A stretch of DNA of 46,646 bases from assembly GCA_964443545.1 (NCBI GenBank), contig CAYUCV010000003.1:8868-55513 (forward strand), in the 5' to 3' direction. Origin of the DNA: an uncultured bacterium (GTDB taxonomy: Bacteria > Margulisbacteria > WOR-1 > JAKLHX01 > JBAZKV01). The translations under genes and the position numbers were made by a program. Shown piece after piece: positions 1 to 11,530 of the stretch. The notes below the pieces were generated by a model, which saw nothing but the letters and a program-made list of their open reading frames with translations, was not told where the DNA came from and searched no databases. The first letter of the stretch is position 1. Every line of letters begins with the position of its first letter.

Positions 1-732
1 CAGTCCTGCCTCAGCATAGAGAACGCCCTGATGTACAGGGCGCAGATAAACGAGATAGAGCGCTCTATTAAGGGAAGCCGGATGTCGGACCTGGGAGCGG
101 CGGCGGCAGGGGTGGCCCACGAGGCCAAGAACGCGCTTGTCAGCATCTACGCTGTGTCGCAGCTGCTATCCGAAAAAAAGGACGATGCCTCCTTTCTGGA
201 AAAGACCAAGGACCTGGTCTCTTCCGAAGTGGAGAGGATGAAGATACTCATGGAAGGCGTCATCAATTATTCCGAGCCGGCGCCGCTCAGTATCGAACGG
301 CAGGACCTAAAAGAAATGGTCGAGGCAACGGCCATTCTGGTGCGCGACATCGCAAAAGGAAAGAACATCTCTCTTGTGATAGGGCAGGAGTGCAGCCGCT
401 TTGTAAGTGCCGACAGGAACACGATGAAGCAGGTGTTCCTTAACCTTTTCCTAAATGCCATAGAAGCTATCGGAAAGGATGGTACGATCACAGTTTCCTG
501 TGCGGACGCCGATGGTTCAAAGGTAAGGATAATCTTTAAGGACACAGGGCCGGGGATACCGCCGGGCAAGATAAAGAAGATACTGGAGCCTTTTTATACC
601 ACCAAGGAACAAGGTACCGGGCTCGGGCTTGCCATTGTCAAGAAGGCGGTTGAGGCCAACGGCGGCTCGCTTTCTATAGAAAGCAAACCCGGAGAAGGCG
701 CCTCCTTTATTATCAGCCTGGAGCGGGGTTGA
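1..732 (+). CDS. Sensor histidine kinase, C-terminal part (GAF end, HisKA, HATPase); 5' end lies outside the window
   Basis: Frame is open from base 1 (QSCLSIENALMY, a GAF-terminal helix like NQAVVSIDNAVLY of the downstream kinase). H-box AHEAKNAL, N-box NLFLNAIEA, G1 DTGPGI, F-box PFYTTK, G2 GTGLGL. Confidence 0.93.
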   Translation, partial: QSCLSIENALMYRAQINEIERSIKGSRMSDLGAAAAGVAHEAKNALVSIYAVSQLLSEKKDDASFLEKTKDLVSSEVERMKILMEGVINYSEPAPLSIERQDLKEMVEATAILVRDIAKGKNISLVIGQECSRFVSADRNTMKQVFLNLFLNAIEAIGKDGTITVSCADADGSKVRIIFKDTGPGIPPGKIKKILEPFYTTKEQGTGLGLAIVKKAVEANGGSLSIESKPGEGASFIISLERG

Positions 733-766
733 GAAGATACCGTGTTGTAGAATAACCAGGATTTTA

Positions 767-795
767 TGGACAAAATCCCGGGCATATGATAAACT
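767..795 (+). promoter_or_regulatory. Sigma70-type promoter for the methyltransferase-kinase pair, overlapped by an inverted repeat (759-778)
   Basis: TGGACA-17 bp-TAAACT with extended -10 TG. GGATTTT-N6-AAAATCC straddles the -35 element. Confidence 0.55.
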
Positions 796-997
796 TTACT
801 CTAAAAATCGGCTGCTGAAGAAAACCGAAGAGTTTCACCTTAAATAGATCTGAACGATCTGAAAAGGTGTTATTTTACGATAAACAAGAGTAGGCTGTTA
901 AATTGTTTGAGAATAACTCCGAAAAAAGGTTTAAAGTTAACCTCGCCAAGTAGAACTGCGCAAAATCTTTCAGTTAATTTGATAGGAACCCGCTAAA

Positions 998-2044
998 ATG
1001 CCAATCGAAACAGCTGGAGTTAGCCAAGTTGACAAAAGTTTTGAAAGGGAAGTTAAATCATTTAAAGAGTATATTGAAAAGGTCAAGAGCGATCTAGACC
1101 TCTTTGATGAGAAAAACGGATCTCGTGAGGAGCGCATTAGCAATATTGAAAAGCTCAAGATCGGACTGTTCGAAGAGATCGGAAAGCATTTTAACAAAGT
1201 ATGGGAAAGAGTTAAGCAGCTGGACAAAAACTCTTACGCAAAATACAGAAAATATTTCCAGGATAGATTATTGCCTTTCTTTGGATATCCAGAGATCAAC
1301 CATCATATATATAGTAAGCCATTAGGATATGCAGGGGATTTTATTACGATGAATTATATATATGATTTTCATGACAAGCACCTCGGGAATTCTTCTTTTG
1401 AAATACTGATAAACATGTTAACTTGTAATATACCAATATCAAGATCAAACATTAAAAGGAGAGAGCACCTTAGACAAATAATCAAAGATGCTTATGTGAA
1501 ACATGGTGATGAAATAAAAATAGCAAGCATCGCAAGCGGATCAGCGAGAGAATTGCTGGGAATGCTTGAGAATAAGGAGCTCCCCAGGTCGATCGATTTT
1601 GTATGTTTTGATTTTGAGAGCAAAGCCCTTGAATATGTTAAAGAAAATGTGTCAAGGATATATGGCAGTGATAAGTCAGACAATATCAAGCTTATTAAAT
1701 CAAATATTGTTGACCTGGCCAGAAAACCGGAGATAAAGAATGTGCTTAATGGTAGGGATTTGATATATGCTTTTGGGATATACGATTATCTAAGCGATAT
1801 GCTTGCAAAAAGGATAACTAAAATCCTTTTTGAATGCCTAAATCCAGGGGGGCATCTTGTTGTTTGCAATGCTTCGGCTTCAAAAAGCGATCAAAGAGCT
1901 TACTATGAATTTTTGGGAGAATGGGAAATGATCTATAGAACCAATGAGGAATTAGTCAGGTTCTCAGATGGATTGGCGGCCAGAAGCATATCGTTAAAAG
2001 ATGATCCCGATGACTGCTACATCTATCTGACAATTTCCAAATAA
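998..2044 (+). CDS. Class I SAM-dependent methyltransferase, PhcB-like (3-hydroxy fatty acid methyl ester synthase family)
   Basis: Family-typical motifs KPLGYAGDFITMNYIY, IASIASGSAREL (motif I), CFDFESKALEY, DLIYAFGIYDYL, LNPGGHLVVCN, EFLGEWEMIYR. AGGA SD upstream. Confidence 0.8.
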   Translation: MPIETAGVSQVDKSFEREVKSFKEYIEKVKSDLDLFDEKNGSREERISNIEKLKIGLFEEIGKHFNKVWERVKQLDKNSYAKYRKYFQDRLLPFFGYPEINHHIYSKPLGYAGDFITMNYIYDFHDKHLGNSSFEILINMLTCNIPISRSNIKRREHLRQIIKDAYVKHGDEIKIASIASGSARELLGMLENKELPRSIDFVCFDFESKALEYVKENVSRIYGSDKSDNIKLIKSNIVDLARKPEIKNVLNGRDLIYAFGIYDYLSDMLAKRITKILFECLNPGGHLVVCNASASKSDQRAYYEFLGEWEMIYRTNEELVRFSDGLAARSISLKDDPDDCYIYLTISK

Positions 2045-4083
2045 TGATCAATCATTTTATACTTTCGGGACTGATCACTTCTGTCACAACTCTATTCTTG
2101 GCTTTGTTCGTATTTCTTGCTAACCCCAACAAGAGACTCAACCGTTATTTTGCCTTCTATACACTTTGCATTTCCTTATGGAGCATATCAGTTTATATGC
2201 ATCAGCCGACCTTGGCCGGTATTTCTGCGGATATGTGGGGGAAGATCCTTCATGTCGGGTCGATCCTCATTCCTCTCGGCTTTCTGATATTTACATTTGA
2301 GCTTCTTGGCTCTCTCAACAGAGAGAAAATAGTTATATATTCGGCTGGTGTGGCATCGGCAGTATTCATTTATTTAACAATGTTCACCGATCTGTTGATA
2401 AACGGGACTACATATAGGGACTTATACTGCTACCCAACTCCAAGCAAGTATTACATTCTATTCTTTATATATTTTGTATCTTGTGTCATATACGGTCTTT
2501 TCAAATTGGTCAGGAGTTATCAAATATCGGACAATATCAAGAGGAACCAACTGCAGTATTTGATATTTGGCTCAGTTTTTGGTTATCTCGGAGGCTTAGA
2601 CAATTTTTTGATCACGATTGACATAATAGTCTTCCCATTCTATCCCTATGGCGCATATGCAATAGCGATTTATTCTCTTATAACAGCCTACGCGATAGTG
2701 ACTGCCCGCCTCATGGATATCGAGGTAATAATACGGAAGGGGTTGATATATTCGATACTTTCGGTGATATTGACCGCCGTGTATTTTTCGGTGGTGTACG
2801 CCGCAAAGCTGGTGTTTTACAGGCTCACGGGAGCAAATACTCTGTGGTTCATCGTTCCGGCGGTCTTCTTTTTGTCGCTGTTCATCCATCCGCTGTTCTC
2901 CTTTGTCCAGGACTTTGTTGACAAGCGCTTCTTTAAGACCAAGTACGAGGCCGACAAAATAGCCAAAAAGTTCTCGGAGGGCATAAAAAAACTAATGAGG
3001 GCAAAGGACCTGGCCGAGTACATAAACAGGGTGGCGCTGCGCACCTTTAAGCTCAAGGGTAGCGCGGTTTATATTTTTGATGAAGAAGATGGGCTCTACA
3101 AGCGCTGGGACTCAAGGGGTTCTCTGCAGCAGCTATGCCCGCCGGTCATATCTAAAGATGATCCTGTTGTCCTAAAGATGGTATCGGCCAGGGGTATCGT
3201 GCAGGACCTAAAGGCCGAGCACATAAAGATCTGCGTTCCGGCGCTTTCAAAAAGAAAGGGGTACAGCATTTCCGGTTTCCTTCTTGCCGACGAAAAAAAA
3301 TCCGAGGACCAGTTCAGCCAGCAGGACATCATGCTGCTGGAAACGATAGCCAACCAGGCCGTTGTCAGTATAGACAATGCCGTCCTATATTCTGCCAGGA
3401 TAGACGCCCGCAAAAAAGCGCTGCTTGTGGAAAGGCTCAATGAACTCGGGTCCTCCGCCGCCGCGGTGGCCCACCAGACAAGAGCGGCAATGGGGCCGGT
3501 GATAGATTTTGCAGCGCAGCTGCAGCAGCAGTACGCCGACCGCGACTTTGTGGGAAGAGCTCTGTCCAAATTCCCCTTTGATGTGGAAAGATTGCGCCTT
3601 ATTTTGACAGGGATACTGGAATACTCTAGGGAGCTAAAGCTCGGCAGGGTGGAGGAGCTTGACCTTAAAGAAATGGTTTTAGGAGTAGCGTCCCTTATAA
3701 ACGGCAGGGCGCAAGAAAAGGGGATAACCGTTGAGACGGATATCTCTGACGGGGCTTTGGTAAAGGCAGAAAAAGGCCGCTTCAGGGATGTCCTTATCTA
3801 TCTTGCCATCAACTGCCTGGAGGCCCTCCAATACGGAGGCAGCATCAGGATCTCTGCCGAAAAGCGCGGCGATAAAATGCGCATCTACTTTAGCGATAAC
3901 GGTCCGGGAGTTTTGCCGGATGTTCTTATTAAGGTCTTTAACCCGTTCTTTACCACAAAACCGGGCTCCATAGGCCTGGGGCTTTCGATAGTAAAAAAGA
4001 TAATCGAAGGACACGGCGGGAGCGTCTTTATGGAAAGCGAGCCGGGGAAGGGGACAACTGTAATTCTGGAGCTGCCGTCCTAA
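2044..4083 (+). CDS. Membrane histidine kinase: N-terminal 7TM (HisKA_7TM-like) sensor, extra TM helices, GAF, HisKA/HATPase with degenerate H-box
   Basis: About 9 hydrophobic segments, YAIVTARLMDI end-of-7TM motif, GAF-like GFLLADEKKSEDQFSQQDIMLLETIANQA, AHQTRAA, DNGPG, PFFTTK, GLGL. TAATG overlap with the methyltransferase stop. Confidence 0.9.
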   Translation: MINHFILSGLITSVTTLFLALFVFLANPNKRLNRYFAFYTLCISLWSISVYMHQPTLAGISADMWGKILHVGSILIPLGFLIFTFELLGSLNREKIVIYSAGVASAVFIYLTMFTDLLINGTTYRDLYCYPTPSKYYILFFIYFVSCVIYGLFKLVRSYQISDNIKRNQLQYLIFGSVFGYLGGLDNFLITIDIIVFPFYPYGAYAIAIYSLITAYAIVTARLMDIEVIIRKGLIYSILSVILTAVYFSVVYAAKLVFYRLTGANTLWFIVPAVFFLSLFIHPLFSFVQDFVDKRFFKTKYEADKIAKKFSEGIKKLMRAKDLAEYINRVALRTFKLKGSAVYIFDEEDGLYKRWDSRGSLQQLCPPVISKDDPVVLKMVSARGIVQDLKAEHIKICVPALSKRKGYSISGFLLADEKKSEDQFSQQDIMLLETIANQAVVSIDNAVLYSARIDARKKALLVERLNELGSSAAAVAHQTRAAMGPVIDFAAQLQQQYADRDFVGRALSKFPFDVERLRLILTGILEYSRELKLGRVEELDLKEMVLGVASLINGRAQEKGITVETDISDGALVKAEKGRFRDVLIYLAINCLEALQYGGSIRISAEKRGDKMRIYFSDNGPGVLPDVLIKVFNPFFTTKPGSIGLGLSIVKKIIEGHGGSVFMESEPGKGTTVILELPS

Positions 4084-5324
4084 TCCTTATACTTTCTTGC
4101 TATCAGTATCGCGTTGTGCCCGCCAAAGCCGAATGAATTGCTCATGGCGATCTCCACTTTCATCTGCCTTCCCTTGTTGGGCACATAATCAAGGTCGCAG
4201 TTGGGGTCGGGGTTTTCATAATTGATGGTGGGGTGCACAAAATCCTCCTGCAGGGACTTTGCTACCGCGGCAAACTCTACCGCGCCCGCGGCTCCCAATA
4301 GATGCCCGGTCATGGACTTTGTAGAGCTGATGGCAAGCTTGTTTGCATGCGCTCCGAACACTTTTTTGATGGCCATTGTCTCTAGCTTGTCGTTAAGTTC
4401 TGTCGAGGTCCCGTGGGCGTTTATATAGTCCACCTGCTCCGGTTTTATTCCCGCGCTTTTGATAGCCGCTTCCATACACCGCACGGCCCCGCCGCCTTGT
4501 GAATCGGGTGCGGTCATGTGGAAAGCGTCGCCACTCATCCCATAGCCTATCACTTCGCAGTAAATGCGGGCCCCGCGCTTTTTGGCGCTTTCAAGCTCTT
4601 CGAGCACAACAATGCCGCTGCCTTCGCCCATAACAAATCCGTCGCGGCCGGCGTCAAACGGCCTTGAGGCCTTTTCCGGAGCGTCGTTCCTGCACGAAAG
4701 GGCCTGAGCGGAGCAGAAACCGGCTATTCCAAGCGGAGTGATCGAGGCTTCGGAGCCCCCCGCAAACATGACGTTGGCAGCTCCTCTTTTGATGAGCTCG
4801 TAAGCATCGCCGATCGAATGCGTTCCCGAAGCGCAGGCGGTAGTTGTGCAGCTGTTGGGGCCTTTGGCGCCAAGGTGTATGGAGGTGACCCCGGCGGCCA
4901 TGTCGTTTATCATAAGAGGGACCATAAAGGGAGAGCACTTGGACGGCCCTTTTTCCTTTAGCGTATAGGCCTGCTGTTCCAAAAATTCTATGCCTCCGAT
5001 ACCGGAGCCTATCAGAACGCCTGTAAGAGGCGCGGTTTGTTCGTTTATTGCCAGTCCGCTGTCGTCCAGGGCCATTTTTGAAGCAGCCACGGCAAACTGG
5101 ATGAACTTTACCAGCCTGCGCGCTTCCTTCTTGTCAAAATACTTGAGCGGGTCAAAGTCTTTTACCTGTCCGGCAATCTGGGAGTCAAATCCGGAGGGGT
5201 CAAAATGGGTGATGCGGCTTATCCCGCTTTTTCCTTCTTTAAGAGCGCTCCAAAAAGAATCCGCGTCGTTACCCAGAGGGGTTACAGCGCCCAGTCCCGT
5301 CACCACCACCCTACGCTCCGGCAT
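4080..5324 (-). CDS. fabF: 3-oxoacyl-ACP synthase II
   Basis: RRVVVTGLG, TTACASG (catalytic Cys), INAHGTST, TGHLLGAAG, SNSFGFGGHN. Confidence 0.97.
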   Translation of the reverse strand: MPERRVVVTGLGAVTPLGNDADSFWSALKEGKSGISRITHFDPSGFDSQIAGQVKDFDPLKYFDKKEARRLVKFIQFAVAASKMALDDSGLAINEQTAPLTGVLIGSGIGGIEFLEQQAYTLKEKGPSKCSPFMVPLMINDMAAGVTSIHLGAKGPNSCTTTACASGTHSIGDAYELIKRGAANVMFAGGSEASITPLGIAGFCSAQALSCRNDAPEKASRPFDAGRDGFVMGEGSGIVVLEELESAKKRGARIYCEVIGYGMSGDAFHMTAPDSQGGGAVRCMEAAIKSAGIKPEQVDYINAHGTSTELNDKLETMAIKKVFGAHANKLAISSTKSMTGHLLGAAGAVEFAAVAKSLQEDFVHPTINYENPDPNCDLDYVPNKGRQMKVEIAMSNSFGFGGHNAILIARKYKD

Positions 5325-6324
5325 AGTTTTCCTCCAGTTTAGAGTTTTTGCACAGGCCGGACAGGCAGTCCTCGGCCTCTTTTACCAGGTCGGCTATTAT
5401 TTCTTTTGCCGGCCTGATCCTTTTATCCTTTATCTTTAGTATGCTCTGTCCGCAAAACACCAGGCCTTCTTCCATATTGCCCTTGTGGGCGGCCCTAAGC
5501 ACTTCAAAAATACAATAAAGTTTGGAACAGGACTTGAGGCAGTTGTCGCAGAACTTGATCCTGGGATAGATCCCTTTCTGCATGTTCTCTATCAGTTTGG
5601 TCCTAACAGCCCTTCCGGGAAGCCCCACAGGGCTTTTTATTATGACCACATCCTCCGGGCCTTTTACATTCTGATACGCCCGCTTATATTCTAGAGCGGC
5701 ATCGCACTCCTCGGCCAGCACAAAGTTAGTGGCAAGCTGGGCCCCGCTGGCCCCCAGTTTGATCATTTTGGCTATCCCGCAGCCGTCGGCTATTCCTCCC
5801 GCGGCTATTATCGGCACATCAGCAACTGCCTCTTTGACCTCTTTTAAAAGGTCCACAGTGCTCTTTTCAAGAGTCCCCAGATGTCCGCCGGCTTCGCTGC
5901 TTTCGGCCACAATGGCCGCGGCCCCGAGCTTTTTTGCTGTCAGCGCCAGCCTGCCCGAAGATACTATAGGGATAATTGGAATGTTCATCTGGCTGCTGAG
6001 CCTGAAGAGGTCCCTGGAAAATCCGGCTCCGGAGGTTATAAAATCGATCTTTTCTTTGATGGCAGTGTTGACTATGCCCAGAAAATCCTTGGCGGCAAAG
6101 AGGATGTTGATGCCGATAATCCCGTCCTTTGTCAGGCTCCGGGCTATCCGCATTTCCTTTGCCAGTTCGTCGTGCTCCATGCCCGAGGCGCCTATCACGC
6201 CGACGGCGCCCGTTGCAGCCACGGAGCCGGCCAGTTTTCCGGTAGAGATCCTGATGGACATCCCGCCCTGAACGATCGGGAGCTTGGCCACCAGTTTTCC
6301 GATCTTTAACTCGGGCAGTTTCAT
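5311..6324 (-). CDS. Nitronate-monooxygenase-family flavoprotein with C-terminal Cys cluster; FabX-like (or FabK-like)
   Basis: LKIG..PIVQGGM..IS, AGGHLG, IAAGGI, IKSPVGLPGRA, CDNCLKSC..YCI, GNMEEGLVFCG; sits between acpP and fabF. Confidence 0.8.
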   Translation of the reverse strand: MKLPELKIGKLVAKLPIVQGGMSIRISTGKLAGSVAATGAVGVIGASGMEHDELAKEMRIARSLTKDGIIGINILFAAKDFLGIVNTAIKEKIDFITSGAGFSRDLFRLSSQMNIPIIPIVSSGRLALTAKKLGAAAIVAESSEAGGHLGTLEKSTVDLLKEVKEAVADVPIIAAGGIADGCGIAKMIKLGASGAQLATNFVLAEECDAALEYKRAYQNVKGPEDVVIIKSPVGLPGRAVRTKLIENMQKGIYPRIKFCDNCLKSCSKLYCIFEVLRAAHKGNMEEGLVFCGQSILKIKDKRIRPAKEIIADLVKEAEDCLSGLCKNSKLEENYAGA

Positions 6325-6343
6325 GGGCTGTCAACTTCCTGCA

Positions 6344-6370
6344 CAACCCCGCACACGCATGCGGGGGTTG
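6344..6370. repeat. GC-rich stem-loop between acpP and the flavoprotein gene
   Basis: CAACCCCGCA-CACGCA-TGCGGGGGTTG (one bulged G). Confidence 0.5.
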
Positions 6371-6381
6371 GCATGTTATTT

Positions 6382-6400
6382 AAAAAAAGCCTTGCGGCCC
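6382..6400 (-). terminator. Short intrinsic terminator/attenuator right after acpP
   Basis: Minus strand reads GGGCC-GCAA-GGCTT (GNRA tetraloop) running into a T7 tract directly after the acpP stop. Confidence 0.55.
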
Positions 6401-6401
6401 G

Positions 6402-6647
6402 TCAGTTCTTTGCGTGGGCAAGAACGTATGCTACTGTGTCTCCCACGGTCTTTATCTTTTCGGCTTCTTCGTCCGGTATCTCAAAGCCAAAGGCTTCTTC
6501 AAGCGCCATGACCAGCTCCACGGTGTCCAGAGAGTCGGCTCCCAGGTCGTCCACATAGGAAGCCTGCTTTGTGACCTCGCTCTCGTTGACCCCGAGCTGA
6601 TCCACCACCACCTTTTTTACCTGCTCGAACGCTTTCTGCTCGTCCAT
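6402..6647 (-). CDS. acpP: Acyl carrier protein
   Basis: [19 protein letters not shown] phosphopantetheine motif. Start moved to ATG 6647 (MDEQK) behind a GGGGGTG SD. Confidence 0.97.
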
Positions 6648-6672
6648 TATCAAATTCACCCCCTTCTATATG

Positions 6673-7410
6673 CTACATGTACATTCCGCCGTTGACGCTT
6701 ATGACCTGACCCGTTATGTACGGGGCGTCAGCGCATAAGAACACGACGGCTTTGGCAACATCTTCGGCAGATCCCAGGCTTCCCATGGGTATCTGGGCCT
6801 TAAGTTTTTCCCTGACCTCTTCGGGCAGTTTTTTTGTCATGTCGGTGTCGATAAACCCCGGGGCAACGGCGTTGGCGGTTATGCCTCTTGAGGCCAGTTC
6901 TCTTGCGGTGGTCTTTGTAAGAGCTATTACCCCGCCCTTGGAAGCAGAATAGTTGGCCTGTCCGGCGTTGCCCATCAGCCCCACAATAGAAGCGATGTTG
7001 ACTATCCTGCCGTAGCGGGCTTTCATCATAAGGGAAGAAACGGCTTTTGTGCAGTTAAAGACGCCTTTGAGGTTAATGCCTATCACCAGGTCCCAGTCCT
7101 CTTCTTTCATCCTCATAAGAAGACCGTCCCTTGTTATGCCGGCATTGTTTATCAGTATGTCTATCTTGCCGAACTCGGAGTGGGCGCTTTTTACGGCCTC
7201 TTCCACTTCTTTGCCGTCTGCCACATTCATCTTGAGGGCAGAAGACTTTACCCCGGATTTTTTCAGTTCTTCGGAAGTAGAACGGGCGGCCTCTATATTG
7301 ACATCGGATACTATAATATCGCAGCCTTCTTTTGCCAGAGCTTCGCAGACGGACCTGCCGATGCCCTGGGCGCCTCCGGTAACAAGCGCAACTTGGCCTT
7401 TAAGTTTCAA
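6673..7410 (-). CDS. fabG: 3-oxoacyl-ACP reductase
   Basis: TGGAQGIG, NNAGITRD, YSASK, NAVAPGFIDTDMT; fab context. Confidence 0.96.
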   Translation of the reverse strand: MKLKGQVALVTGGAQGIGRSVCEALAKEGCDIIVSDVNIEAARSTSEELKKSGVKSSALKMNVADGKEVEEAVKSAHSEFGKIDILINNAGITRDGLLMRMKEEDWDLVIGINLKGVFNCTKAVSSLMMKARYGRIVNIASIVGLMGNAGQANYSASKGGVIALTKTTARELASRGITANAVAPGFIDTDMTKKLPEEVREKLKAQIPMGSLGSAEDVAKAVVFLCADAPYITGQVISVNGGMYM

Positions 7411-8318
7411 AGAACGGCTCCTTTTACAGAAACGCTGTCCTCAACATTGTATATTTTAGCATTTTCCAGGGTCTTTTTAACAAGCCCCGACAGTATCTTG
7501 CCGCAGCCTATCTCCACAAAGGTGGCAAAACCCTGCAGGGATAGGTTTTTTAGGGTGTCTTCCCAGAGCACAGGGCTGGTCACCTGCTTTACAAGCAGTT
7601 CTTTGATCTTTGCCGCGTCGGTCTGGGGGGAGGCGGTCACATTAGAATATACCGGGAACGAAGGGCTCTTAAAACCGGTCTTGTCCAGCTCGACAGCCAG
7701 TTTGTCCGCCGCCGGCTTCATAAGCGAGCAGTGGAAAGGGGCGCTTACAGCAAGGGGGATTATTTTTTTTGCGCCGGCCTCTTTGCAGAGCCGTCCGGCC
7801 TCTTCAACCCCTTCTTTTGTACCCGAGATCACTATCTGTCCCGGGCTGTTAAAATTGGCCGGCTCCACAACGCCTTTTGAAGAAGCCGCAGCGCAGCAGG
7901 CTGCCAGTTTTTCCCTGTCCAATCCCAGCACCGCGGACATGGCCCCTTGCCCTGCCGGCACCGCCTCCTGCATGAACCTGCCGCGCAGATGAACTATCCT
8001 AACGGCATCCTCAAAAGACAGCGCGCCCGAGGCCACCAGCGCCGAATACTCGCCCAGGCTGTGGCCGGCGGCCGCCTTTGGGGTTTTTCCAAGGGACATA
8101 AAAGCGGCGGTGCTTACGGTCAGTATCGCGGGCTGGGCTATTTCTGTGGATTTTAAGGCATCGTCGGGACCTTCAAAGCAGAGTTTGGATAGTTCAAATC
8201 CAAGGGCCCTGTCGGCTTTGGCAAAGATCTCTTTTGCCGCCTCAAAATTGTCATAGAGGTCTTTGCCCATGCCGGCTTTTTGGGAGCCCTGTCCGGGAAA
8301 AATGAACACGCTTGTCAA
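7407..8318 (-). CDS. fabD: Malonyl-CoA:ACP transacylase
   Basis: FPGQGSQ, GHSLGEY, LAVSAPFH. Confidence 0.97.
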   Translation of the reverse strand: MTSVFIFPGQGSQKAGMGKDLYDNFEAAKEIFAKADRALGFELSKLCFEGPDDALKSTEIAQPAILTVSTAAFMSLGKTPKAAAGHSLGEYSALVASGALSFEDAVRIVHLRGRFMQEAVPAGQGAMSAVLGLDREKLAACCAAASSKGVVEPANFNSPGQIVISGTKEGVEEAGRLCKEAGAKKIIPLAVSAPFHCSLMKPAADKLAVELDKTGFKSPSFPVYSNVTASPQTDAAKIKELLVKQVTSPVLWEDTLKNLSLQGFATFVEIGCGKILSGLVKKTLENAKIYNVEDSVSVKGAVL

Positions 8319-9520
8319 GAAAGGAGCTCCTTGAAGGTTTTGGTCATGGCGGGAAGCACTTCAAAAAGGTCTCCCACAATGCCGTAGGTGGCCACATTAA
8401 AAATAGGTGCGAATTGGTCTTTGTTTATGGCCACGATCACATCTGACGAGGACATCCCTGCCAAATGCTGGATGGCCCCCGAAATGCCGCAGGCTATATA
8501 CAGTTTGGGGCTTACCGTCTTTCCGGTCTGTCCCACCTGGTGGAACTGGGATATCCAGCCGGCGTCCACAGTGGCGCGCGAGGCCCCCACTGCCCCGCCG
8601 ATGATATCTGCCAGGTCCTTTACAAGCTTAAAATTTTCGGCGCATCCAAGTCCGCGTCCGCCTGACACGATTATCTCGGCCTCCGCCAGGTTCACTTTCT
8701 TTTCTGTTGATTGTATTATCTCGAGAAGTTTGACCCTCAGCGACTTTTCCGATATCTTTACGGGTAACTCTATTATCCGGCCTTTTCTTGACGCGTCCGG
8801 CTGGAGTTTTTTGAACACTTTGGGCCGTACAGTGGCCATTTGCGGCCTAAAATCTGGAGAAATGATGGTGGCCATGATGTTGCCGCCAAAAGCGGGGCGG
8901 GTCTGGCGCAGGATCTTCTTTTCGGGGTCTATGTCAAGCCCGGTGCAGTCCGCGGTAAGCCCCACTCTTATCCTTGCCGCGATCCTTGAGGCAAGGTCTC
9001 TTCCGGTGGTGGTGGCCCCCATAAGCACTATCGCCGGGTTATGGGCTTTTATCAGTTCTACAATGGTATCGCAGTAGGGTTCGGTAGTGTAGTTCTTCAA
9101 TTTTGCATCGCTGCACACATAGACCTTATCTGCCCCGTAGTGTATCAGCTCCTGAGCGGCCTTCTTGATGCCCTCATCGCCTAAAAGCACCGCGGCCACT
9201 TCTTCGCCCAGGTCCGCAGCAAGTTTTCTGGCTTCGGCGATAAGCTCCATAGCCACTCCCTGCACTTTGCCCTGGTGCTGCTCGGCAAATACCCAGATAC
9301 CCTTAAAGCCGGAGAGGTCCTTTTTGGGGCCTTCTTTCTTGGTAACGGTGATCTCGATAGCTTTGAATTTGCAGGGGCCCACGCAGGCGCCGCACAGGAC
9401 GCATTTATCGTTGATGACGGCCAGTTTTCCGTGCATTTCTATCGCCCCGTACGGGCAGGAAGGCACGCAAAGCCTGCAGCCTTTGCATTTTTCCGCTATT
9501 ACTCTTATTCCTTCGGGCAT
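8315..9520 (-). CDS. etfA: Electron transfer flavoprotein alpha subunit with N-terminal 2x[4Fe-4S] ferredoxin domain
   Basis: CKGCRLCVPSCP and CVLCGACVGPC; GLTADCT, RPAFGGNIMATI, QVGQTGKTV, GISGAIQHLAGM. Confidence 0.94.
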   Translation of the reverse strand: MPEGIRVIAEKCKGCRLCVPSCPYGAIEMHGKLAVINDKCVLCGACVGPCKFKAIEITVTKKEGPKKDLSGFKGIWVFAEQHQGKVQGVAMELIAEARKLAADLGEEVAAVLLGDEGIKKAAQELIHYGADKVYVCSDAKLKNYTTEPYCDTIVELIKAHNPAIVLMGATTTGRDLASRIAARIRVGLTADCTGLDIDPEKKILRQTRPAFGGNIMATIISPDFRPQMATVRPKVFKKLQPDASRKGRIIELPVKISEKSLRVKLLEIIQSTEKKVNLAEAEIIVSGGRGLGCAENFKLVKDLADIIGGAVGASRATVDAGWISQFHQVGQTGKTVSPKLYIACGISGAIQHLAGMSSSDVIVAINKDQFAPIFNVATYGIVGDLFEVLPAMTKTFKELLS

Positions 9521-9521
9521 A

Positions 9522-10304
9522 TCAAAGCACCTTTTGTTCTTTTAGTTTGCCAAACAGGGTTTTTGCTATTATTTCTGGCTCGCCCTCAAGCAGCTCGCTC
9601 TTTCCCCTTGGCGGCGGCGTAAATATCCGAACCACTTTTGTGGGAGAGCCGTTCAAACCAGTATTATTCTCGTCTGCCGCAATATCTTTTGCGCTCCACG
9701 AAGGGATCGCCATCTTTTTTGCCCGCATCTGCCCCTTTAGCGAAGGCATTCTGGGCTCATTTATCTGCTTAATGACGGTAACAGCGGCCGGAAGATCCGT
9801 TTCTACTATCTCGGAAGTGTCCTCCAACTGGCGCTTGACCCGTATCTTGCCGCCTTCGGACTCTATGCTGATGGCAAAGGTGATCTGAGGGATGTCCAAA
9901 AACTCCGCTACCCCGGGGCCCACCTGCGCGGTGTCTCCGTCTATGGCCTGCTTTCCAAAAAGCACCAGATCATAGGCGCCGAGTTTTTTGATCGCCTGCG
10001 AAAGGGTGTAAGAGGTGGCCCAGGTGTCCGCCCCGGCAAAGGCCCTGTCGGATATGAGGACGGCTTCGTCCGCTCCCATTGCTATTGCTGTCTTTAGCGC
10101 GTCGGCCGCCTGCGGAGGGCCCATGGTGATAACGGTAACTTTGCCGCCGCCTGCGTCCCGGAGCCTCAAAGCGGCTTCAACGGCGTTCTCGTCAAAGGGA
10201 TTGATGATGCTCTTTACGCCCTCCCTGATGAGGGTGTTGGTTTTAGGGTCTATCCTGACATCGTTGGTGTCAGGTACCTGTTTTATGCAGACTACAATGT
10301 TCAT
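9522..10304 (-). CDS. etfB: Electron transfer flavoprotein beta subunit
   Basis: VCIKQVPDT, INPFDENAVEAA, DRAFAGADTWAT, GKQAIDGDTAQVGP. Confidence 0.95.
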   Translation of the reverse strand: MNIVVCIKQVPDTNDVRIDPKTNTLIREGVKSIINPFDENAVEAALRLRDAGGGKVTVITMGPPQAADALKTAIAMGADEAVLISDRAFAGADTWATSYTLSQAIKKLGAYDLVLFGKQAIDGDTAQVGPGVAEFLDIPQITFAISIESEGGKIRVKRQLEDTSEIVETDLPAAVTVIKQINEPRMPSLKGQMRAKKMAIPSWSAKDIAADENNTGLNGSPTKVVRIFTPPPRGKSELLEGEPEIIAKTLFGKLKEQKVL

Positions 10305-10331
10305 CTGTTCATTTTATTTTAACATACAACA

Positions 10332-10352
10332 GCCCCGCTTAAAAAGCGGGGC
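10332..10352. repeat. Perfect 9-bp palindromic stem-loop in the ACAD-etfB spacer
   Basis: GCCCCGCTT-AAA-AAGCGGGGC. Confidence 0.6.
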
Positions 10353-10372
10353 CGGATTATCGGTCTTTTTTG

Positions 10373-11530
10373 TTATTTTGTGGCAGCGGATTCTTTGATC
10401 AGCTGCAGGGCGATAACATTCCTCTGTATCTGGTTGGTGCCCTCGTATATCTGGGTTATCTTGGCGTCCCTCATGTATTTTTCCACGGGGTATTCTTTCA
10501 TATAGCCGTAGCCGCCCAGTATCTGTACCGCATCGACGGTGACCTTCATGGAAACATCGCTGGCAAAAAGTTTGCTCATGGCCGAATCCCTGGAGATGCT
10601 ATCTGTGCCGGTGTCAACGGTCCTGGCTGTTGCAATCACAAGGGCCCTTGCGGCTTCTATCTGCGTGGCCATGTCCGCAAGTATGTGCTGGACCCCCTGG
10701 AAAGAAGAAACGGGTTTGCCGAACTGCACCCTTGTCCTTGAGTAGTTAAGAGCTTCTTCAAAAGCGCCCTGCGCTATGCCCACCGCCTGTGCTCCTATGC
10801 CCGGCCTGGTCCTGTCCAGGGTCTTCATCGCGACAATGAACCCCATGCCTTCTTTACCAAGCATCTGTGATTTGTGTATCTTGCAGTCCTGGAACACAAG
10901 TTCCCTTGTTGCGGAGCATCTGATCCCCATCTTGTTCTCTTTTTTGCCGAAGGTAAAACCCGGCATGCCTTTTTCAAGGATAAAAGCGGTGGCCCCGCGG
11001 CTGCCCCTTTTTTTGTCCGTCATTGCGATCACCGTGTAGATCTCGGCTTCCCCGCCGTTGGTGATCCACTGCTTGGTCCCGTTGAGAATGTAGTAGTCGC
11101 CGTCCTTTTTGGCTGTGGTCTCTATCCCGCTGGCATCAGATCCCGCGTTGGCCTCGGTAAGGCCAAAGGCCGCCAGCTTTTTGCCGGAGGCAATTGGGGG
11201 AAGATACTTCTTTTTCTGTTCTTCCGTGCCGAAAAGCACTAAGGGATAGCAGCCCAGCGCTGATGCGGCAAAAGTGACGCCTACGCCTCCGCAGATCCTG
11301 CTGACCTCTTCGGTGGCCAGACAGAATTCAAGGCAGCCGCCGCCAAACCCGCCGTATTCGGGAGCTATATAGAGCCCGCAAAGATCGGCTTCGGCAAAGA
11401 CCTTCATGAGTTCCCAGGGGAACTGGCCAGTTTCGTCAAGTTCGGCCCTTAAGGGTTTCACTTTTTCTTCAGAAATCTTCCTCGCAAGGTCCTTGATCAT
11501 CTTTTGCTCATCAGTCAACAAATAGTCCAT
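10373..11530 (-). CDS. Acyl-CoA dehydrogenase (butyryl-CoA dehydrogenase/Bcd-like)
   Basis: AFGLTEANAGSDA, LNGTKQWITNG, RVQFGKP, QILGGYGYMKEYPVEKYMRDAKITQIYEGTNQIQR. Start taken at MDYLL (11530). Confidence 0.93.
   Translation of the reverse strand: MDYLLTDEQKMIKDLARKISEEKVKPLRAELDETGQFPWELMKVFAEADLCGLYIAPEYGGFGGGCLEFCLATEEVSRICGGVGVTFAASALGCYPLVLFGTEEQKKKYLPPIASGKKLAAFGLTEANAGSDASGIETTAKKDGDYYILNGTKQWITNGGEAEIYTVIAMTDKKRGSRGATAFILEKGMPGFTFGKKENKMGIRCSATRELVFQDCKIHKSQMLGKEGMGFIVAMKTLDRTRPGIGAQAVGIAQGAFEEALNYSRTRVQFGKPVSSFQGVQHILADMATQIEAARALVIATARTVDTGTDSISRDSAMSKLFASDVSMKVTVDAVQILGGYGYMKEYPVEKYMRDAKITQIYEGTNQIQRNVIALQLIKESAATK

Follow-up and report, generated by a model that had tools for sequence, protein, structure and literature searches.

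An exchangeable enzyme-plus-sensor cassette in a conserved sensor-kinase locus next to the fab operon of a Saganbacteria-like bacterium

We analysed a stretch of 46,646 nucleotides (nt; hereafter the window), corresponding to positions 8868-55513 of contig C3 in the genome of an uncultured Saganbacteria-like bacterium (here G000; GenBank assembly GCA_964443545.1; 1.26 Mb in 71 contigs, 91% complete, GC content 0.493), in which a putative methyltransferase gene directly precedes the gene of a sensor kinase, designated HK2. The bacterium is called Saganbacteria-like after a protein of G005, a genome of the same order, to which NCBI gives the name 'Candidatus Saganbacteria'. The order on the plus strand is the 3' end of an upstream paralogous kinase gene, HKup (1-732), a spacer of 265 nt (733-997), the methyltransferase gene (998-2044) and HK2 (2044-4083). 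Comparison with G001, the sole genome of the same genus compared, and with other genomes of the class showed that positions 841-2705, containing the enzyme gene and the part of HK2 for its seven-transmembrane (7TM) sensor domain, are an exchangeable cassette, exchanged as a block within a conserved kinase locus beside the fab operon. The features of the locus are as follows.

1..732, plus strand: 3' part of HKup (243 codons), comprising the dimerisation and histidine phosphotransfer region (DHp) and HATPase_c (Pfam HATPase_c 93 bits, weak HisKA match); conserved left flank
756..781, no strand assigned: hairpin immediately downstream of the HKup stop codon, within the conserved flank; its 11-pair stem is terminator-like and is placed on the minus strand by the scan
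767..795, plus strand: sigma-70-like promoter match upstream of the left breakpoint (TGGACA, 17 nt, TAAACT, with TG before the second hexamer; 9/12 of the consensus, a consensus match only)
841..2705, plus strand: exchanged cassette of 1865 bp, GC 0.372, without blastn match in G001; 5' leader, methyltransferase gene and kinase codons 1-220 (7TM sensor)
998..2044, plus strand: predicted class I S-adenosylmethionine (SAM)-dependent small-molecule methyltransferase, 348 amino acids (aa), from 43 homologues, an AlphaFold model and Foldseek
2044..2703, plus strand: HK2 codons 1-220, variable HisKA_7TM sensor domain (PF16927, 49.4 bits)
2704..2739, plus strand: hinge, A-RLMDIEVIIRKG, with the right breakpoint 2705/2706 at the R codon
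2706..4083, plus strand: conserved HK2 scaffold, with hydrophobic segments after the hinge (from hydropathy), a GAF-like region, DHp and HATPase_c; 96.5% aa identity to G001
4080..5324, minus strand: fabF-like gene from the list of open reading frames (ORFs), convergent with HK2; conserved right flank

The locus and the replaced block

The ATG of HK2 overlaps the TAA stop codon of the methyltransferase gene by one base (TAATG), and HK2 is translationally coupled to that gene. HKup starts outside the window, at C3:7851, and its N-terminal part on C3 is also a HisKA_7TM domain. Downstream, the fab cluster lies on the minus strand, the fabF-like gene being followed by fabK-like, acpP, fabG and fabD genes (named from their translations), and the locus adjoins fabF in 7/7 genomes examined of the two nearest families (G000, G001, G002, G003, G005, G006 and G008). 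From its domain matches, the 679-codon HK2 can be assigned to the HisKA_7TM sensor kinases (PF16927, cut-off 28.6 bits, residues 10-226; HATPase_c, 73.2 bits), with a weak GAF_3 match and an AtoS/ZraS-like core that scores far below the cut-offs of those families. It shares a multi-pass N-terminus, a GAF-like region, DHp and ATPase with the PrsK-type kinases of the PEP-CTERM system, but was rejected as a PrsK because TIGR02916 aligned over residues 16-678 with 87.5 bits, far below its cut-off of 300.

G000 and G001 are separate species representatives with about 93% identity, and the G001 locus lies on its contig C6. In blastn comparisons, G001 matched the window with 93.9% identity over 1-840 and 92.8% over 2706-11075, with no match for 841-2705. 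Between the same two points G001 holds 2081 bp of unrelated DNA (GC 0.34-0.47), which encodes a PlsC-type acyltransferase (PF01553, 108.6 bits), a HAD-IB hydrolase (PF12710, 82.4 bits) and a different 7TM N-terminus; the replacing block thus contains non-homologous enzymes and no variant of the G000 methyltransferase. Pairwise alignments placed the breakpoints at 840/841 and 2705/2706, with edges sharp to the base: on the left, identity to G001 disappears in the first few bases that follow ...GAGTTTCACCT, and on the right it resumes at the CGC (Arg) codon of the hinge, rising from ~45% to ~97% within one codon. An earlier, first-pass annotation of this DNA, made from the letters alone, had located the shift near the motif closing the 7TM domain and had proposed that relatives be compared for alternative blocks. 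The right breakpoint is indeed the R codon of that motif, RLMDI, and the locus is not invariant, G001 having a different block between identical breakpoints.

At the protein level, the G000 and G001 HK2 kinases are 27.7% identical in the N-terminal domain in the family alignment (29.6% by BLASTP) and 96.5-97% identical in the core, and the G000 kinase compared with the database proteins P0048 and P0049 gave 22-27% for the N-terminal and 76% for the C-terminal part. Producer and sensor part therefore differ between close relatives, with flanks and kinase core conserved and breakpoints common, which is the pattern of a pherotype-type locus. The stretch with the promoter match (767..795) is identical in G001 in pairwise alignments, and this match is part of the conserved scaffold, outside the cassette.

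Apart from short chance matches, the cassette edges showed neither repeats nor traces of mobile elements, and no genes for integrases, transposases or other recombinases lie there. The gradient of identity away from the breakpoints (94-99% in the core beside the cassette, with a flank spread of 84-97%) was uninformative on recent import. Incoming DNA would recombine through the near-identical flanks, that is, by homologous recombination; since the hinges of paralogues are only 53-67% identical over 60 nt, moves between different cores should be rarer, illegitimate events. A metagenome scan with the kinase core yielded 174 peptide-pattern stretches, three of which were confirmed by tblastn (a G001 contig at 97%, and two distant partial matches at 34% and 23%), and no further allele.

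G000 is a scaffolded metagenome-assembled genome (MAG) with 43 runs of N, one of them inside the upstream kinase, which would favour an assembly artefact such as a chimeric contig. However, two contigs of run X1 (1-1446 and 1427-2739) together span both edges of the G000 form, and a single contig of 10670 bp from run X8, of another study, connects 840 to 2706 through 2081 bases of other sequence. For runs X3, X5 and X8 we counted joints, loose ends and bridging contigs as evidence and did not read uncovered parts of the window as absence. In run X3, a contig matches up to 840 and then reads as the first 30 letters of the G001 block. In run X5 the core match starts at 2689, preceded by letters unlike both forms, and a small piece matches inside the methyltransferase gene, which suggests, from these short ends of sequence, a third, diverged methyltransferase-type allele. 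The X3 and X5 contigs break around the hairpin, at 738 and 762. The contigs of X3, X5 and X8, whose species are unassigned, carry other forms on flanks 89-98% identical to those of the window. Both forms thus occur on independent contigs, and the G000 and G001 alleles are no assembly artefacts.

Fast divergence in place, with AT drift of the sensor half, could equally have produced a contrast between the two parts of the kinase, and sensors do evolve faster than cores (G000 compared with G003: 21% identity in the sensor, 37.5% in the core). Against this, the two blocks, of unequal length (1865 and 2081 bp), contain non-homologous genes, identity changes within one codon at the hinge, and the nearest relatives of the sensor are joined to foreign cores (see below). 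We consider artefact and in-place divergence, both already contradicted by these data, to be very improbable indeed.

The first-pass annotation had started from an AT-rich patch at 780-2720, and its four hand counts of G+C were exact (21/60 in row 1261, 17/60 in row 2461, 30/60 in row 2761 and 32/60 in row 2821). The patch is real, the sliding GC profile running at 0.30-0.44 over ~733-2700 and at 0.47-0.59 thereafter, but its limits have to be redrawn: the AT-rich tract starts at the upstream stop codon, at 733, whereas the cassette is bounded by 841 and 2705. The GC content of 841-2705 is the lowest of 5308 segments of the same size in the genome (mean 0.495, s.d. 0.022, z = -5.5). The G+C content at third codon positions (GC3) was 0.371 for the methyltransferase gene, 0.455 for kinase codons 1-220, 0.70 for codons 221-300 and 0.62 for codons 301-679. 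Relative to the GC3 expected for the given amino-acid content, with codon use taken from 826 long genomic ORFs, the corresponding z-scores were -6.6, -2.7, +3.1 and +2.4; the step persists after this normalisation, and amino-acid make-up is therefore no explanation of it, as had been claimed. The best GC3 change point within the kinase gene was codon 214, and codons 212-221 lay no more than 1 log-likelihood unit below it (log-likelihood ratio 10.3, against 8.1 for the largest of 500 permutations), in agreement with the shift first noticed near aa 220, and Fisher's test for GC3 in kinase codons 1-220 versus 221-300 gave p = 2e-4.

A third HisKA_7TM kinase of G000, on contig C6, has no such step (0.51 in the N-terminal part and 0.54 in the rest), indicating that the 7TM domain is not AT-rich by nature. 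In 14 of 20 kinases, GC3 rose by 0.16 or more at the hinge; the six without it were both kinases of the low-GC genome G006, three members of a housekeeping-like clade (G000 C6, G032 and G026) and a truncated gene of G008. The AT-richness of the block could derive from its membership in a low-GC flexible gene pool common to other lineages.

Re-assortment of enzyme-plus-sensor units among kinase cores

To compare the histories of the two kinase parts, we split 31 kinases, taken from databases and from 12 genomes of the class, at the hinge, whose motif is conserved, with small variations, in 31/31 aligned family members. The trees of the two halves, the comparison suggested in the first-pass annotation, were incongruent. 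In the core tree, HK2 of G000 and G001 grouped together (support 100) beside P0048 and P0049, in a wider group that also included P0055, P0050 and the G005 kinase linked to a BioF-like enzyme. In the sensor tree, G000 HK2 grouped with P0061 (62% identity) and P0062-P0064 (support 99), and G001 HK2 stood alone. Sensors clustered by the type of their upstream enzyme: those linked to reductase-like genes (G000 HKup and G002a) paired at 100, with their cores in different clades, and two sensors linked to a GNAT protein plus methyltransferase likewise paired at 100. Approximately unbiased (AU) tests, with p-values of 2e-4 to 2e-9, rejected the grouping of G000 and G001 in the sensor tree (p = 2e-4), that of four core-clade members as one sensor-tree group (p = 1e-6) and that of G000 with P0061 in the core tree (p = 2e-9), as well as the grouping of the two reductase-linked kinases in the core tree.

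Enzyme and sensor co-vary, and the core lags. Between the G000 methyltransferase unit and P0002/P0061, which are the closest methyltransferase and the closest sensor, identities were 59% for the enzyme, 62% for the sensor and 36% for the core; the reductase-like units of G000 and G002 gave 58%, 54% and 45%, and the GNAT units of G008 and G006 66%, 70% and 50%. The sensor is more alike than the enzyme in two of these three pairs (P0002/P0061 and GNAT), and the core lags in all three. Together, these results show that enzyme-plus-sensor units have been re-assorted among kinase cores across the class. The proposal of the first-pass annotation, that a linked block recombined into a resident kinase scaffold, is hence supported by the GC3 step, by the incongruent trees of the halves and by the G001 replacement at common breakpoints.

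The pairing itself recurs in distant lineages. We found the methyltransferase in 14 of 65 genomes of the class (E <= 1e-15; 18 matches at 17 places), with a HisKA_7TM kinase directly downstream on the same strand at 15 of the 17 places, the other two ending at contig ends. The same order, methyltransferase and then 7TM kinase, occurs at 6/6 GTDB loci found with P0002, four of them from Omnitrophota, one from 'Planctomycetales' and one from a Nitrospirota MAG. Start and stop codons of the paired genes overlap or lie a few bases apart. Compared with the HK2 sensor, the sensors of these six loci are 42-44% identical in four cases and 28% in two, and the core is 22-25% identical in the two loci with a whole kinase. 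The four sensors at 42-44% exceed the other Saganbacterial kinases of the locus set (20-29%); the closest sensor overall is that of P0061, at 62%. The Omnitrophota loci have a GC content of 0.32-0.34, and the Planctomycetales and Nitrospirota loci combine a low-GC enzyme and sensor with a core of higher GC.

Other enzymes precede such kinases beside fabF in G002, G003, G005, G006 and G008, and at a further locus, in G012, where no fabF was seen. They comprise a FeeM-like GNAT protein with a methyltransferase; an NAD_binding_4 (fatty acyl reductase-type) protein, alone or with a thioesterase; a 4HBT thioesterase; a BioF/serine-palmitoyltransferase-like pyridoxal phosphate (PLP) enzyme; a FabH-like condensing enzyme; and an acyl-ACP-reductase/PigE-N-like protein, which also precedes HKup in G000. 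As judged from their family matches, all of these enzymes are predicted to act on acyl thioesters. The G005 enzyme matched the BioF and serine palmitoyltransferase models with 340 bits and a CqsA-type model with 201 bits, below the cut-off of 428.

These data also bear on whether enzyme and sensor are functionally linked at all, as the locus might instead be a hot spot of the flexible genome in which enzymes are unrelated cargo. AT-rich islands elsewhere in G000 do carry unrelated genes of typically flexible kinds (a Schlafen-like helicase, a Wzy/flippase/glycosyltransferase set, an FGE-sulfatase beside a reverse transcriptase, and AbiEii), and an AbiE-like gene pair lies just upstream of the locus in G000 and is absent from G001. 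Mere cargo would nevertheless sit poorly with a pairing found at nearly every place in the class and at all six loci in other phyla, with identities of enzyme and sensor that co-vary ahead of the core, and with sensors that cluster by enzyme type; we regard such a hot spot as quite improbable.

Several further arrangements were observed at loci of this kind. In G001, two tandem methyltransferase genes of the same family precede a single 7TM kinase (L040/L041, G001:C1:47274-49075); this genome has four methyltransferase copies at three further places, and G000 has one. At G003:C6 (L020, 3432-4880), a kinase of 482 aa without 7TM, which starts just after the hinge region, lies directly before a methyltransferase-plus-kinase unit and may be a core left after cassette loss. 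In G000, a second, tandem enzyme-plus-kinase unit lies immediately upstream of the one described here (C3:6765-9599), with an acyl-ACP-reductase/PigE-N-like gene (360 aa, GC3 0.41) followed 3 nt later by HKup, in which GC3 is ~0.40 for the 7TM part and 0.6-0.8 for the core. The unit is 94% identical in G001 and is therefore an old, fixed cassette.

Proposed function of the enzyme and its sensor

The product of 998..2044 is, from its predicted structure, a class I SAM-dependent small-molecule methyltransferase. Its only Pfam match was weak (Methyltransf_12, 17.1 bits, cut-off 30) and NCBIfam returned no family, but the AlphaFold model (pLDDT 92.2) has a class I SAM methyltransferase fold with a long helical N-terminal part, and Foldseek matched it with probability 1.00 to small-molecule methyltransferases, SgvM, BchU and PhzM among others. 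There were 43 homologues at E <= 1e-3, some of them fused to PilZ, receiver or cNMP-binding domains; five of these, and likewise one further member of the cluster, are labelled by JGI 'extracellular factor 3-hydroxypalmitic acid methyl ester biosynthesis protein', the label of PhcB. In searches for a comparison with PhcB, PDB sequences gave no match and a plasmid tblastn only generic methyltransferases with 22-26% identity. A predicted complex of the methyltransferase and the sensor domain (score 0.00, mark 0.32) spoke neither for nor against binding, and so gave no verdict on a sensor that would recognise the enzyme itself.

We propose that the enzyme converts an acyl-chain intermediate of fatty-acid synthesis to a hydrophobic product, here probably a methyl ester, that the matching 7TM domain would sense in the membrane, and that the constant core would relay the signal to a response regulator whose gene lies elsewhere. 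Exchange of the cassette would then change the molecule made and the molecule sensed together, with the output wiring kept. That the sensor should recognise the product of the enzyme is suggested by a pairing that is tight, recurrent and co-varying. Taken as a whole, cassette exchange together with an enzyme that makes the ligand for its own sensor is the explanation that we favour, and we consider it reasonably probable. It is plausible that the product acts between cells, as in PhcB/PhcS and CqsA/CqsS, and this communication appears somewhat ahead of a product that would report on the cell's own membrane.

Several observations weigh against this explanation or limit its reach. The enzyme product as ligand of the sensor, on the model of PhcB/PhcS, is what we infer from gene order and co-variation, and the suggested membership of the methyltransferase in the PhcB family depends on the names given by one source to the five homologues. 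Moreover, the exchange is established between sister species and across the class, and the G000/G001 pair does not cover polymorphism within a species; the possible third allele in X5 was seen from contig ends only. The trees are of the 'quick' kind, and of the four AU groups two (G000 with P0061, and the reductase-linked pair) were picked with the trees already at hand. P0002 and P0061 appear to lie on one contig of 24045 bp, as judged from their common source and equal contig size, their adjacency being unconfirmed. The low GC of the block has a counterpart in the upstream unit, whose reductase-like gene and HKup sensor are AT-rich (GC3 ~0.40) and yet 94% identical between G000 and G001; low GC is therefore a lasting property of such units and no mark of a recent swap. 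There are no response-regulator genes on contig C3, and nine in the whole genome. Finally, the G001 allele encodes phospholipid-type enzymes (PlsC-like and HAD), which are no less compatible with membrane remodelling than with signal synthesis.

This last point leads to a reading in which the exchange is real and the units serve private membrane-lipid homeostasis: the enzyme would alter the cell's own lipids, the 7TM domain would monitor them, perhaps adjusting the fab genes, and swaps would be adaptations to habitat. The position of the locus against fabF in every genome examined of the two nearest families, the nature of the G001 allele and the predicted action of all linked enzymes on acyl chains agree with it, as does the lack of an export gene among the ORFs of both the G000 and the G001 block. 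The hydrophobic signals of the PhcB and CqsA systems, however, are not known to need an exporter. The linked enzymes also resemble synthases of autoinducers or signal lipids (the PhcB-labelled methyltransferases, the FeeM-like N-acyl amino acid synthase and the alpha-oxoamine synthase with its sub-threshold CqsA-type match), and frequent replacement by non-homologous chemistry would be easier to account for by social or diversifying selection than by homeostasis. We thus think homeostasis unlikely as the function of the units, although it is a serious contender.

In its gene order, the locus resembles phcBSR of Ralstonia solanacearum, in which the PhcB methyltransferase makes methyl 3-hydroxy-myristate or -palmitate and the PhcS kinase senses the product (PMC8578825, PMC11960443, PMC5481312). 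In both cases one operon has a SAM methyltransferase gene directly before that of a membrane sensor kinase, with a chemistry based on fatty acids (in our case as proposed), and the PhcB label recurs among the homologues. The present system differs in its phylum, in a HisKA_7TM sensor with a GAF-containing core and in an operon without a response regulator, and PhcB/PhcS was likened to it by description only. The Ralstonia system is said, in work of 2015 by Kai and co-workers, to have two signal variants, and we know of no replacement in it by other enzyme classes.

The organisation of the cassette has parallels in the pherotype loci of Firmicutes, where producer genes and the sensor part vary as one block on a conserved kinase core. 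In Staphylococcus agrBDC and Streptococcus comCD, the signal-making genes and the N-terminal sensor of the kinase vary as a linked block, with the cytoplasmic part and the regulator conserved. For Bacillus comQXP(A), a ComP N-terminal domain that is variable versus a conserved cytoplasmic domain has been described, as has the existence of pherotypes (PMC4008528). Those loci make modified peptides and contain diverged versions of the same genes, whereas the alternative blocks described here encode non-homologous enzymes for small, lipid-like molecules, and their variation is shown between sister species and across the class. A third likeness is to Vibrio CqsA/CqsS and Legionella LqsA/LqsS, the alpha-hydroxyketone systems, in which an acyl-chain PLP enzyme lies beside a multi-pass kinase that detects its hydrophobic product; G005 has a BioF/SPT-like enzyme before a core-clade kinase. 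The G005 enzyme scores higher for BioF/SPT and its sensor family is different, so that this is analogy and not membership. The locus departs from pherotype loci and phcB-phcS in phylum and sensor family, in exchanging enzyme classes for one another and in lying beside the fab operon. We found no literature on such a system in Saganbacteria or Margulisbacteria in a search that did not cover supplementary files.

The portions of the literature mentioning HisKA_7TM that were covered describe no ligand for it. The cassettes provide a testable ligand hypothesis for this widespread domain without known signal, the proposed ligand being the product of the directly upstream enzyme. They would extend the principle of producer-plus-sensor cassettes from Firmicutes peptides to small-molecule chemistry in uncultivated phyla, and in a stronger form, with non-homologous enzymes exchanged at a fixed hinge. 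The linked enzymes form a list of candidates for new signal or lipid-modifying activities, and the hinge (...AYAITRYRLMDIEVIIRKG...), as a natural splice point, could guide the building of chimeric sensor kinases. More tentatively, and with the odds somewhat against so broad a statement, HisKA_7TM kinases may be receptors, across phyla, of self-made lipid-like molecules, in which the 7TM domain travels with the matching acyl-chain enzyme and docks at a fixed hinge onto resident kinase cores. In that case a single recombination event could give a lineage not merely another dialect but a signal of another chemical class (methyl ester, N-acyl amino acid, aldehyde or alcohol, amino-ketone, lysolipid), with the downstream wiring kept, and small-genome uncultivated bacteria (Saganbacteria, Omnitrophota) would have an unseen and highly diversified system of cell-to-cell communication or kin recognition.

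Upstream region and other observations in the genome

Just before window base 1, a scaffold gap of 100 N (C3:8768-8867) falls inside the GAF-to-DHp part of HKup and hides ~130 codons. The G001 contigs C35 and C6 end at the same point of HKup, where the pieces seem to abut with approximately one residue missing. A repeat or strain variation are possibilities for this common break point of two assemblies.

Further upstream, a gene pair at C3:4976-6536 ends in a gene for an AbiEii-type nucleotidyltransferase toxin (PF08843, 91.6 bits), in place of which G001 has 336 bp. It is preceded, at C3:1264-4953, by a gene for a predicted surface or outer-membrane-like protein of 1229 aa that is 77.7% identical to its G001 counterpart, as compared with ~93% for its neighbours, and that is, by this comparison, a putative fast-evolving envelope gene.

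Three response-regulator genes of G000 have frames of 464-473 aa, which is NtrC-size as far as length can tell; two form a tandem at C14:8239-10372 and the third is at C6:35553. They are candidate partners of the orphan kinases HKup and HK2.

Elsewhere in G000, low GC3 marks a gene for a Schlafen-group-3-like helicase, a Wzy/flippase/glycosyltransferase cluster and a gene for a HEAT-repeat protein (C41:6802-8775, C9:22681-27822 and C8:21792-23708), which are probably flexible or defence-related. A further AT-rich island, at C1:6177-8412, contains a gene with an FGE-sulfatase domain followed by a reverse transcriptase gene (RVT_1), an arrangement typical of diversity-generating retroelements.

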